This document shows positions 22,331-40,337 of a stretch of 64,000 nucleotides of DNA, piece by piece; positions within the stretch are counted from its first letter, which is position 1, and each line of letters opens with the position of its first letter. The DNA is taken from assembly GCA_021648485.1 (NCBI GenBank), contig JAKISS010000002.1, positions 14,443 through 78,442 on the forward strand, written 5' to 3'. Below the pieces are notes generated by a model. It did no database searches and was not told the DNA's origin. It worked only from the letters and a program-made list of their open reading frames with translations. A program made the position numbers and the translations under genes. The stretch is from Gammaproteobacteria bacterium. GTDB taxonomy: Bacteria; Pseudomonadota; Gammaproteobacteria; SZUA-152.

Positions 22331-23254
22331 TTAAGAACGCCCATGTGCCAATAAAAAATCGATCTCCGGCCCTTTAGGCACGATACTACTGGGATTAAGC
22401 ATTTTATGACTGGCATAATAATGATATTTGACATGATCCATATTCACCGTTTTTGCAACACCAGCTACCTGATACAATTCCCGCGTGTAAGCCCACAAAT
22501 TCGGATAATCCACCAGGCGCTTTTTATTGCATTTGAAATGACCGACATACACCGCATCAAAACGCACCAAAGTAACAAATAATCGCCAATCCGCTTCAGT
22601 GATGTTTTCACCCACAAGATAGCGCTGAGTGGCCAATCGTATCTCCAGCTCGTCCAGCGTTGTGAACAACTGATCAAACCCCTGCTCATAAGCCTTTTGC
22701 GTGCGGGCAAAACCGGCGCGATATACACCATTATTCACTGTGTGATACACCACTTCGTTAATGGTATCAATCTCTTCACGCAAAGACTGTGGATAAAAAT
22801 CCATTTCGGCACATACGCCAGCACAATCATTAAATGCAGAATTCAACATACGAATAATTTCTGAGGATTCGTTATTCACAATAGTATTGCGCTGTTTATC
22901 CCATAACACTGGCACAGTCACCAGGTCATTAAAACCCGCATCTGCTATTTGATAAATTTCAGCCAATGTTTTGGCATTATTGACCTGATCCGGTGTCGCC
23001 CCCGGGTATTCCCCAAACACCCAGCTTTGCGCAGGCATCAACGGGTGTACCACAGACACCGAAATAGCATTTTCCAATCCCTTGAGCACCCGAAAAATCA
23101 ACGTACGATGCGCCCACGGACAGGCATAAGAAACGTAAAGATGATAACGTCCCGGCTCGGCGGAAAACCCCCCTTCGCCTGTGAGGCCGGGACTGCCATC
23201 CGGCGTTATCCAATTTCTGAAACCCGATGTTACCCGGACAAATTCACCTTTCAT
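22331..23254 (-). CDS. yqjG: Glutathionyl-hydroquinone reductase (Xi-class GST, YqjG/ECM4-like)
   Basis: GRYHLYVSYACPWAHRTLI motif; 307 aa. Confidence 0.8.
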   Translation of the reverse strand: MKGEFVRVTSGFRNWITPDGSPGLTGEGGFSAEPGRYHLYVSYACPWAHRTLIFRVLKGLENAISVSVVHPLMPAQSWVFGEYPGATPDQVNNAKTLAEIYQIADAGFNDLVTVPVLWDKQRNTIVNNESSEIIRMLNSAFNDCAGVCAEMDFYPQSLREEIDTINEVVYHTVNNGVYRAGFARTQKAYEQGFDQLFTTLDELEIRLATQRYLVGENITEADWRLFVTLVRFDAVYVGHFKCNKKRLVDYPNLWAYTRELYQVAGVAKTVNMDHVKYHYYASHKMLNPSSIVPKGPEIDFLLAHGRS

Positions 23255-38565: not shown

Positions 38566-38892
38566 ATGAAAGCAAAATGGTTGATAGTTCCTGCAGCTGC
38601 TGCTGCCCTGTTAATTTCCGGTCAAGCAACGGCTGATCTGGCCCTGGCCAAAAAAAGCGGCTGCCTGGCTTGCCACGGTGTTGATAAGAAAATCGTTGGC
38701 CCATCCTGGAAAGACGTGGCGGCCAAATACAAAGGTGACGCTGGCGCTAAAGATCGTATGATCGCCAAAGTGAAAAAAGGGGGCAAAGGCAACTGGACGA
38801 AAATCACAGGCGGTGCTCCCATGCCGCCTTACTCACCGCGTGTCTCTGACGAAAACATCGAAAAACTGGTCGATTTCATCATGACCCTCTAA
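38566..38892 (+). CDS. Small soluble class I cytochrome c (c551/c552-like)
   Basis: Signal peptide; CLACHG heme site; distal PMPP. Confidence 0.8.
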   Translation: MKAKWLIVPAAAAALLISGQATADLALAKKSGCLACHGVDKKIVGPSWKDVAAKYKGDAGAKDRMIAKVKKGGKGNWTKITGGAPMPPYSPRVSDENIEKLVDFIMTL

Positions 38893-38915: not shown

Positions 38916-38946
38916 AAAAAAGCCAGCACACCGTGCTGGCTTTTTT
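38916..38946 (+). terminator. Rho-independent terminator
   Basis: gccagcac acc gtgctggc followed by tttttt. Confidence 0.8.
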
Positions 38947-39018
38947 GTGTCCATTTTCAGGCACCTCGACACTCGCAGCACCGGCAAAATCACCTTGACG
39001 ATGTGCCAGCGTGGAACG

Positions 39019-39230
39019 TTATACACAATATGTTTCACATTGTTCACATATTGACCGACTTTGACCGTTTTTTGACGAACAGACCAACATAAAACTATAA
39101 CACATTGTTTTTAATAACTAAAATAGTCCGCCTATTTTTTGACCAATTTAATAAATCTGTAACAAAACCGAGGTCAACAGACCGCTTCCCTCAGCTTATA
39201 CACAAAGTTATCCACAGGATTTGTGGATAA
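39019..39230. promoter_or_regulatory. DnaA-box cluster
   Basis: Perfect TTATNCACA matches at 39019-39027 (ttatacaca), 39196-39204 (ttatacaca), 39208-39216 (ttatccaca) and 39222-39230 (tgtggataa, inverted). One 1-mismatch box at 39040-39048 (ttgttcaca). An AT-rich stretch lies in between. Confidence 0.6.
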
Positions 39231-39446: not shown

Positions 39447-40337
39447 ATGCCCGACTGGCAATCCATTTCACGGCAAGTACACATTGCAGCGGGAACGGTT
39501 CTGGCCACTGACACCGTACGCCCTGTGGGCGGTGGCTGCATCAACGCAGCCTATGCGCTCACCGGTCACCAAAACGGACACCCGCAACCCTTTTTCATCA
39601 AAACCAATACCGCTGACAGCCTGTCCATGTTCGAGGCCGAAGCAGAAGGATTGCACGCCTTGATCAACAGCCACAGCCTGCGGGTACCCACCCCCATTTG
39701 TAGTGGCATTGCAGGAGAAGATGCCTATCTCGTCATGGAACACATCACACTGCAAAGCACGGGGGACGATGCACAACTGGGAAGCAGACTGGCGGCAATG
39801 CACCAGACCCGCTGCCCACAATTTGGCTGGCATCGACACAACAGCATCGGCAGCACGCCACAGCTCAATCACGAAACTGATAACTGGGTGACGTTTTGGG
39901 TCAAACAACGGCTGGGGACACAACTGACACTGGCCAGCCAAAACGGGGCAAAACGCTCACTGCTAAGCCAGGGTGAAAAACTGCAAACGACACTGGCTGC
40001 TTTTTTCACCGATTACCAACCCGTGCCATCTCTGTTGCACGGTGATTTATGGTCTGGCAATGCGGCCTTTGATACACAGGGCCAACCGGTGATTTTTGAT
40101 CCTGCCGTATATTACGGTGACCGTGAAACTGACCTGGCCATGACCGAACTGTTTGGGGGGTTTTCACCCGCCTTTTATGCCGCTTACAACGCCGCCTGGC
40201 CCCTGGATGCAGGCTATGCCACGCGCAAAATGCTCTACAATCTGTACCACATTCTCAACCATTTCAATCTGTTTGGCGGCGGCTATGAATCACAAGCTCT
40301 GGGCATGATCGACCGCCTGCTCAGTGAATGTGCTTAA
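39447..40337 (+). CDS. Fructosamine/ketosamine-3-kinase family protein
   Basis: LLHGDLWSGN motif. Start ATG 39447 preceded by AAGGAAA. Confidence 0.8.
   Translation: MPDWQSISRQVHIAAGTVLATDTVRPVGGGCINAAYALTGHQNGHPQPFFIKTNTADSLSMFEAEAEGLHALINSHSLRVPTPICSGIAGEDAYLVMEHITLQSTGDDAQLGSRLAAMHQTRCPQFGWHRHNSIGSTPQLNHETDNWVTFWVKQRLGTQLTLASQNGAKRSLLSQGEKLQTTLAAFFTDYQPVPSLLHGDLWSGNAAFDTQGQPVIFDPAVYYGDRETDLAMTELFGGFSPAFYAAYNAAWPLDAGYATRKMLYNLYHILNHFNLFGGGYESQALGMIDRLLSECA

Follow-up and report, generated by a model that had tools for sequence, protein, structure and literature searches.

The 64,000-nucleotide stretch of DNA analysed here (the window) belongs to an uncultured gammaproteobacterium, the 3.13-Mb assembly of which is 86% complete. 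The intergenic spacer between a cytochrome c gene and a gene of the fructosamine-kinase family includes a cluster of DnaA boxes at positions 39019-39230, and the list of open reading frames (ORFs) places the entire cluster in non-coding DNA. Three of the boxes form a compact core with the geometry of a DnaA-reactivating sequence (DARS) of Escherichia coli, and candidate sites for IHF and Fis lie between this core and a fourth, distal box (Table 1). As judged by this organisation, 39019-39230 is probably a DARS2-type chromosomal DnaA-regulatory module, one of two in the genome. Offsets given below are counted from the start of box III; the copy in the window is referred to as site A, and the copy between nth and priA on contig C59 of the same assembly as site B.

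Table 1. Coordinates of the putative DnaA-regulatory module and of the features that flank it in the window.
Feature	Position	Strand	Remarks
Whole composite module (putative)	39019-39230	.	~212 bp; distal box, IHF-like site, Fis-like site and three-box core
Distal DnaA box TTATACACA	39019-39027	+	Perfect match to TTATNCACA; 177 bp upstream of box III; co-oriented with boxes II and III
One-mismatch DnaA box TTGTTCACA	39040-39048	+	Not conserved
IHF-consensus-like site	39098-39110	-	Plus strand TAACACATTGTTT; minus strand AAACAATGTGTTA, one mismatch to WATCAANNNNTTR; offset -98
Fis-consensus match GCCTATTTTTTGACC	39130-39144	+	Consensus GNNYANNNNNTRNNC; offset -66; holds the sole conserved ttgacc
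Core box III TTATACACA	39196-39204	+	Perfect match to TTATNCACA
Core box II TTATCCACA	39208-39216	+	Perfect match to TTATNCACA; 3 bp from box III, co-oriented
Core box I TTATCCACA	39222-39230	-	Perfect match to TTATNCACA; head-to-head with box II across 5 bp
Cytochrome c gene	38566-38892	+	Upstream neighbour; 108 amino acids; small periplasmic class I protein; CLACH haem motif in translation
Intrinsic-terminator-like hairpin of the cytochrome c gene	38921-38947	+	AGCCAGCAC-ACC-GTGCTGGCT, then T run; left limit of spacer
Fructosamine-kinase family gene	39447-40337	+	Downstream neighbour; Pfam PF03881 (Fructosamin_kin), E = 4e-106

DnaA boxes and accessory sites

The four perfect boxes within 212 bp and the one-mismatch box at 39040 had been described in a first-pass annotation of the window, and a pattern search verified their positions and orientations. 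The 3-bp and 5-bp spacings reported there are also correct, box III and box II being separated by AAG and box II and the inverted box I by GGATT, and the trio reads TTATACACA-AAG-TTATCCACA-GGATT-TGTGGATAA on the plus strand. The spelling of two boxes had to be corrected, however, as those at 39019 and 39196 read TTATACACA and not TTATCCACA, which is the sequence only of the boxes at 39208 and 39222 (minus strand). The one-mismatch box is probably incidental or of low affinity, and among the eight genomes scanned, a box with up to one mismatch at its offset was found only in the genome of the window (G000).

The window contains eight perfect boxes, as compared with 3.05 ± 1.87 expected from shuffled sequences, and four of the eight lie inside the 212 bp. 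Genome-wide, 167 perfect boxes are present in the 3.13-Mb assembly, and three or more of them fall within 300 bp at only three sites, namely 39019-39230, C59:539-748, and the spacer between dnaA and dnaN on contig C97. A search of the whole assembly with the 35-bp three-box pattern revealed 39196-39230 (no mismatches) and C59:714-748 (one mismatch); the third-best match, with six mismatches, is at the level of the reversed-pattern control. Such clusters, the frequency of which the first-pass annotation had left to a genome-wide count, are not common in this genome: there are three, and exactly two DARS-type cores among them. Two further perfect boxes in the window, at 22788-22796 and 22872-22880, are 84 bp apart inside a coding gene for a glutathione transferase-like protein (22331-23254, minus strand) and look like chance matches.

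The accessory sites were identified by their match to consensus sequences and by their conserved position. In the IHF-like site, the TAA....TTG core is invariant in all eight genomes aligned for site A, and site B has an IHF-consensus match at -97 together with a perfect second one at -115. At the Fis-like site a TTTTGACCA block is conserved in the eight genomes, and the Fis-consensus match of site B is GGTTAAAAAGTGATC or GGTCAAAAATTGACC at -65. The ttgacc-type repeats noted earlier in the AT-rich part of the spacer were thus upheld in part: the copy at 39140-39145 is conserved and forms part of the Fis-consensus element, whereas the remaining copies vary among relatives. The distal box at 39019 has eight of its nine columns invariant in eight genomes, the exception being the N position. 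Taking both sites together in the 8-9 genomes aligned, a perfect distal box is found at -175 to -179, an IHF consensus at -97 or -98, and a Fis consensus at -65 or -66. To judge from these alignments, the distal box and the two accessory sites, IHF-like and Fis-like, are parts of one fixed module, in which -98 and -66 are candidate positions for the binding of IHF and Fis.

Second copy, conservation and the replication origin

Site B has its core at C59:714-748 within a module at C59:539-748. The functional blocks are common to sites A and B, the spacer sequence is not, and the two copies are therefore not the product of a recent duplication. A mobile repeat was ruled out together with a recent duplication, given that only functional blocks are shared, that there are two copies only, and that each is syntenic in relatives.

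The first-pass annotation had proposed that conservation of the trio be examined in related genomes. The pattern TTATCCACA-N5-TGTGGATAA-N3-TGTG, with up to two mismatches allowed, was found in 39 of 41 relatives, nearly always at two sites per genome, and the reversed control gave no match. Both sites are kept in the five same-genus genomes examined, and synteny extends to further genomes of the family, two for site A and three for site B; the syntenic contexts are cytochrome c followed by fructosamine kinase (site A) and nth followed by priA (site B). Two copies per genome are the rule in this family, and both copies have the full accessory layout.

The conservation is concentrated in the core. 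In the alignment of eight genomes for site A, invariant columns make up 31 of 35 within the core, as compared with 55 of 482 elsewhere in the spacer, and the corresponding values for site B (alignments of 8-9 genomes) are 29 of 35 and 43 of 560. Outside the core the spacer has diverged to about 56% identity. It is hence very improbable that the cluster arose by chance, or that it is a hairpin or palindrome unrelated to DnaA, such as a terminator or the operator of another dimeric regulator. The inverted repeat of boxes I and II was indeed scored as a terminator-like hairpin on the minus strand, but no T run follows it toward any gene end, none of the four sites deviates from the DnaA consensus, the core is invariant in a spacer that diverges around it, and the reversed pattern has no match in roughly 290 genomes.

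Two observations concern the neighbourhood of priA. Conservation among relatives suggests that priA starts at about C59:900 (ATGTCCACAGCC..., N-terminus MSTANIFLRVAIPSPLRR) rather than at the ATG at C59:1007, which sits within a DnaA-box-like TGTCCACA. In L052 (G035:C53:3200-9200), which comes from a distantly related genome of the class, priA and a fructosamine-kinase gene are divergent and have one DARS-type core between them; in the genome studied here, each of these two genes flanks one copy. This arrangement hints at an ancestral order of priA, module and fructosamine kinase.

The two groups of boxes flank an AT-rich stretch of ~130 bp, and the cluster superficially resembles a small oriC. 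The chromosomal origin, or a secondary or cryptic one, in which this stretch would be unwound, was therefore considered. On either side of the site the GC skew is about -0.1, as it is over most of the 92-kb contig, and it is negative in the whole window; the skew analysis proposed in the first-pass annotation thus showed no change of sign at the site. The skew turns from negative to positive at ~15.8-16.0 kb of contig C97, precisely where an AT-rich cluster of four boxes occupies the dnaA-dnaN spacer (C97:15836-15978), and C97 carries the only dnaA gene of the assembly. The spacer at C97:15780-16060, with four perfect boxes that include a head-to-head pair TTGTCCACA-TC-TGTGGATAA, is likely oriC. 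Its position differs from that of E. coli oriC, which lies between gidA and mioC.

Given the unbroken negative skew and the separate dnaA-dnaN cluster, oriC at 39019-39230 is effectively excluded. An accessory origin at this position is also highly improbable. A chromosome has one oriC, usually beside dnaA, dnaN, rpmH or gidA, whereas the element is present in two copies per genome, dnaA is located on another contig, and no consistent distance of the element from dnaA was found in closed genomes of the class, in which it ranges from 2% to 46% of the genome length. The first-pass annotation ranked a DARS, a titrating site or a DnaA-controlled promoter above oriC, and the skew and the DARS geometry support this ranking. 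In genome annotation it should be kept in mind that a dense group of perfect DnaA boxes need not be oriC.

Comparison with E. coli DARS and datA

By definition, a DARS promotes the dissociation of ADP from ADP-DnaA in vitro and increases initiation in vivo. The E. coli DARS regions were read directly from NC_000913. DARS1 is TTATCCACT-ATTCC-TGTGGATAA-CCA-TGTGTATTA and the DARS2 core is TTATTCACC-TTTTC-TGTGGATAG-AGT-TGTGAAGAA, while the trio in the window reads TTATCCACA-AATCC-TGTGGATAA-CTT-TGTGTATAA in reverse complement. All have box I, 5 bp, inverted box II, 3 bp, and box III in this order, and the layout that the first-pass annotation had given for DARS, two co-oriented boxes and one opposed, agrees with both E. 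coli sequences. In E. coli, the head-to-head arrangement of boxes I and II across 5 bp is required for ADP release, which proceeds via Gln208 of DnaA, and box III has a supporting role (PMC6868365).

DARS2 is located in the spacer between rppH/ygdT and mutH (Kasho 2014; PMC4245941; PMC11724364). Its core was set at L003:1135-1169 by means of the PciI/IBS (IHF-binding site) marker and the "equidistant" statement in PMC11724364. The rppH-mutH spacer includes a second trio of DARS geometry, TTATCCCAG-CTTTC-TGTGGATAA-CAT-GGTGTAAGA, at L003:1452-1486 (NC_000913 2969451-2969485), which the same marker and statement exclude as the DARS2 core. It is ~280 bp from the core and seems to fall within the right half that papers call dispensable.

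The module in the window shares several features with DARS2. The orientations of the core boxes and the 5-bp and 3-bp spacers are identical. In E. coli the IHF region, which lies at a spacing that matters between the core and a distal region of Fis sites and a DnaA box, is some 70-100 bp away from box III, beyond that box as seen from boxes I and II, to judge from the sequence and from the PciI marker and text of PMC11724364; the IHF-like site of the window is at -98. A perfect distal DnaA box is present at about -185 in E. coli and at -177 in the window, both elements include a Fis consensus, and both are non-coding and away from oriC. DARS1, in the bioD-uvrB spacer, has the same core geometry and a very similar core sequence, and in both genomes there are two such sites. 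It differs from the module in having no IHF or Fis consensus at the module offsets, only a box with one mismatch being found, at -197. E. coli DARS1 needs neither IHF nor Fis. In the genome of the window the accessory set is complete at both copies, so that a minimal site of the DARS1 type is suggested by neither.

The proteins expected to act at a DARS were sought in the assembly. DnaA is 66% identical to E. coli DnaA in a pairwise alignment and keeps Gln208, Val211, Phe239, Lys243, Asp269, Arg285, Leu290 and Arg334, plus the DNA-contact residues checked. Residues needed for DARS-dependent ADP release in E. coli (Gln208 and Leu290, with Phe239, Lys243 and Arg334 in support) are thus all conserved. 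Fis, encoded beside dusB on contig C35, is 48% identical to its E. coli counterpart, and ihfA (C75) and ihfB (C79 and C8) all score above the NCBIfam cut-offs. The ihfB gene was found twice with identical scores, at C79:25451-25729 and C8:10053-10331, which reflects either a real duplication or redundancy of the assembly.

On the model of E. coli, ADP-DnaA would bind the three high-affinity core boxes, and DnaA molecules on boxes I and II would make a head-to-head contact across the 5 bp via the alpha-6 surface of the AAA+ domain (Gln208 in E. coli), with head-to-tail support from DnaA on box III (Leu290). ADP would then be released, and apo-DnaA would leave and rebind ATP, giving a larger pool of initiation-competent ATP-DnaA. 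An IHF-type bend at -98 and the Fis-type site at -66 may fold the DNA into a loop, by which DnaA on the distal box at -177, and perhaps Fis, could contact the complex at the core and thereby stimulate the reaction or gate it. Box geometry, rarity in the genome, conservation, accessory offsets, location away from the origin and presence of the partner proteins and key DnaA residues are matters of observation; that DnaA, IHF and Fis bind, that ADP is released, and in which direction initiation would change, are predictions from the sequence of the site and its likeness to DARS2.

Several points weigh against a DARS function. The distal box has opposite orientations in E. coli DARS2 and in the window. 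The Fis site of the window lies between the IHF site and the core, whereas the essential Fis-binding sites FBS2-3 of E. coli lie beyond the IHF site. Both consensus sequences, for IHF and for Fis, are degenerate, and it is positional conservation alone that speaks for these sites. The site is not at uvrB or mutH; having cytochrome c and fructosamine kinase as neighbours, it is not a positional orthologue of DARS1 or DARS2. Furthermore, hda, the product of which makes ADP-DnaA accumulate by RIDA, as a DARS requires, was not found in the 86%-complete assembly: searches of the whole assembly by tblastn with the E. coli proteins gave no homologue of hda, uvrB or mutH. However, of 13 genomes of the same genus, 10 have an hda (TIGR03420) that scores above the cut-off, and all seven genomes that are at least 95% complete are among them (one with a fragment). 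As hda is present in congeners, its absence, together with that of uvrB, probably reflects the completeness of the assembly.

The strength of the boxes is a further difference. Every core box of E. coli DARS2 has one mismatch and no E. coli core has more than one perfect box, whereas the three core boxes in the window are all consensus-grade, which could suit stable titration better than a catalytic cycle in which DnaA binds and is released. A negative datA-type site, or one that simply titrates DnaA, would lower the initiation potential by sequestration of DnaA or, with an IHF bend, by ATP hydrolysis as in datA-dependent DnaA-ATP hydrolysis (DDAH). In datA, specific boxes (2, 3 and 7) and an IHF site promote the hydrolysis of DnaA-bound ATP, as described in PMC11724364. 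That description of essential DnaA boxes plus an IHF site suits the locus, in which the groups formed by the four consensus-grade boxes are separated by a conserved IHF-like site, and the locus also fits as a non-coding cluster outside oriC that would act on the nucleotide state of DnaA; this likeness, too, counts against a DARS. The perfect or near-perfect core boxes, as compared with the weaker boxes of E. coli DARS, would likewise favour stable occupancy. Nevertheless, datA inactivates DnaA, and the window has the DARS-defining head-to-head pair with the 5-bp spacer, the comparison with datA being by description only. The invariance of this pair, of its spacer and of box III at 3 bp has an exactness that would be superfluous for titration alone. 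The DARS-specific residues of DnaA, Gln208 foremost, are also conserved, though they are so in many DnaA proteins. Negative regulation or titration at this site is thus considered unlikely, and a DARS2-type module is preferred.

Distribution, neighbouring genes and significance

An exact-pattern scan of one genome per species gave at least 120 loci, and the 113 with enough flanking sequence were analysed. Carriers among the matches listed include Pseudomonas, Stutzerimonas, Legionella, Stenotrophomonas and other Lysobacterales, Woeseiaceae, Halomonas, Thiomicrorhabdus, Nitrosomonas, Sulfuritalea, Rhodocyclaceae and Burkholderiales. A distal DnaA box (up to one mismatch, between -200 and -150) is present at 82 of these 113 loci, most commonly at -177 or -178. 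An IHF-like match (up to one mismatch, between -130 and -70) occurs at 59 of the 113, with ~53 at -97 to -100, and an exact match to the Fis consensus is located at precisely -66 at 31 of the 113. In an even sample of the phylum, a core with at most one mismatch was found in 41 of 72 genomes of the same class and in 37 of 178 genomes of other classes, the control being zero everywhere; the matches from Enterobacteriaceae in this sample read as DARS1. In family f45, from another class of the phylum, some small genomes exceed the one or two copies that are usual for a genome, with as many as six of a near-identical core variant (GTATCCACAGAAGTTGTGGATAAC...).

The genes next to the core vary. Among the matches listed, the neighbour is priA at ~23-26 loci, a HemN-like radical SAM gene at 18 and citrate synthase at 11, and others are an M48 peptidase gene, xseA, sbcB, exbB and an FKBP gene. 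No uvrB or mutH homologue lies within 1.5 kb of any of the 120 perfect-core loci among these matches. By crude ORF calls the right-hand gene is on the plus strand at 64 of the loci listed and on the minus strand at 37. The varied neighbours and the unfixed orientation of genes speak for a cis-element that is autonomous, and against an operator belonging to a single gene. The copies upstream of priA in other Gammaproteobacteria are identical to the module of the window in core, offsets and accessory sites, the copy in the window being the one that is not at priA.

A role mainly as a DnaA-dependent operator of the fructosamine-kinase gene or of priA, with no part in nucleotide exchange, was weighed against these data. 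Both copies in the genome are 150-220 bp upstream of a gene start in the same reading order (III-II-I, then the gene), and ~23 of the 120 loci among the matches listed are just upstream of priA. E. coli DARS1 and DARS2 overlap the promoter regions of uvrB and mutH (PMC5835720), and operator and DARS roles can therefore coexist; the two readings are not exclusive. However, no sigma-70-like promoter overlapping or following the core was predicted in the window, where a single weak match, at shuffle level, lies inside the AT-rich spacer. In addition, the neighbours differ widely among taxa, the right-hand gene faces the module at 37 of 101 of the loci listed, and a class-wide module of 212 bp with fixed internal offsets exceeds the needs of an operator. 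A purely transcriptional function is accordingly doubtful, while the recurrent link to priA leaves room for a second, transcriptional role of a DARS2-type module.

The control of initiation by the ATP and ADP forms of DnaA is understood almost only in E. coli. DARS-like sequences are reported for Vibrio cholerae at the same uvrB and mutH positions (PMC6090056), and literature searches found no DARS outside E. coli relatives and V. cholerae, the conservation statements of Fujimitsu 2009 being taken from later papers only. The novelty here appears to lie in the accessory sites of the DARS core, the arrangement of which differs and is more widely conserved, and in the new genomic positions of the module; this suggests that a control device of the DARS type exists far outside the relatives of E. 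coli. The exact core geometry and the fixed accessory layout in hundreds of non-enteric genomes imply that DNA-catalysed reactivation of DnaA may be widespread.

It is tentatively proposed that the module of ~215 bp is the ancestral, class-wide DARS, with fixed internal spacing, present in the majority of Gamma- and Betaproteobacteria as well as in some further proteobacterial classes, typically as two copies per genome of which one is tied to priA. E. coli DARS1 and DARS2 would then be relocated, degenerate derivatives. Should this proposal, the less certain of the two made here, be correct, DNA-catalysed recharging of DnaA would be a general proteobacterial mechanism and not an enterobacterial speciality, and the link to priA could couple replication restart to the status of the initiator. 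The fragment is short and concrete, and can be tested with the existing E. coli assays and in carriers that are tractable, such as Pseudomonas, Stenotrophomonas and Legionella.

With regard to the local setting, public sequencing runs that hold this sequence are mostly DNA metagenomes from hydrothermal vents, and none of them is labelled as RNA. A structured RNA or leader in the spacer was rejected, as Rfam gave only sub-threshold Thr_leader matches that reflect the terminator hairpin. The hairpin stem and T run at 38921-38947 are kept in the eight-genome alignment. The two neighbouring genes named in the first-pass annotation are as it stated, judging by the CLACH motif of the cytochrome and the Pfam match of the kinase. 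The start of the fructosamine-kinase gene at 39447 is preceded by an AAGGA ribosome-binding site, and the proteins of relatives align with it from residue 1.

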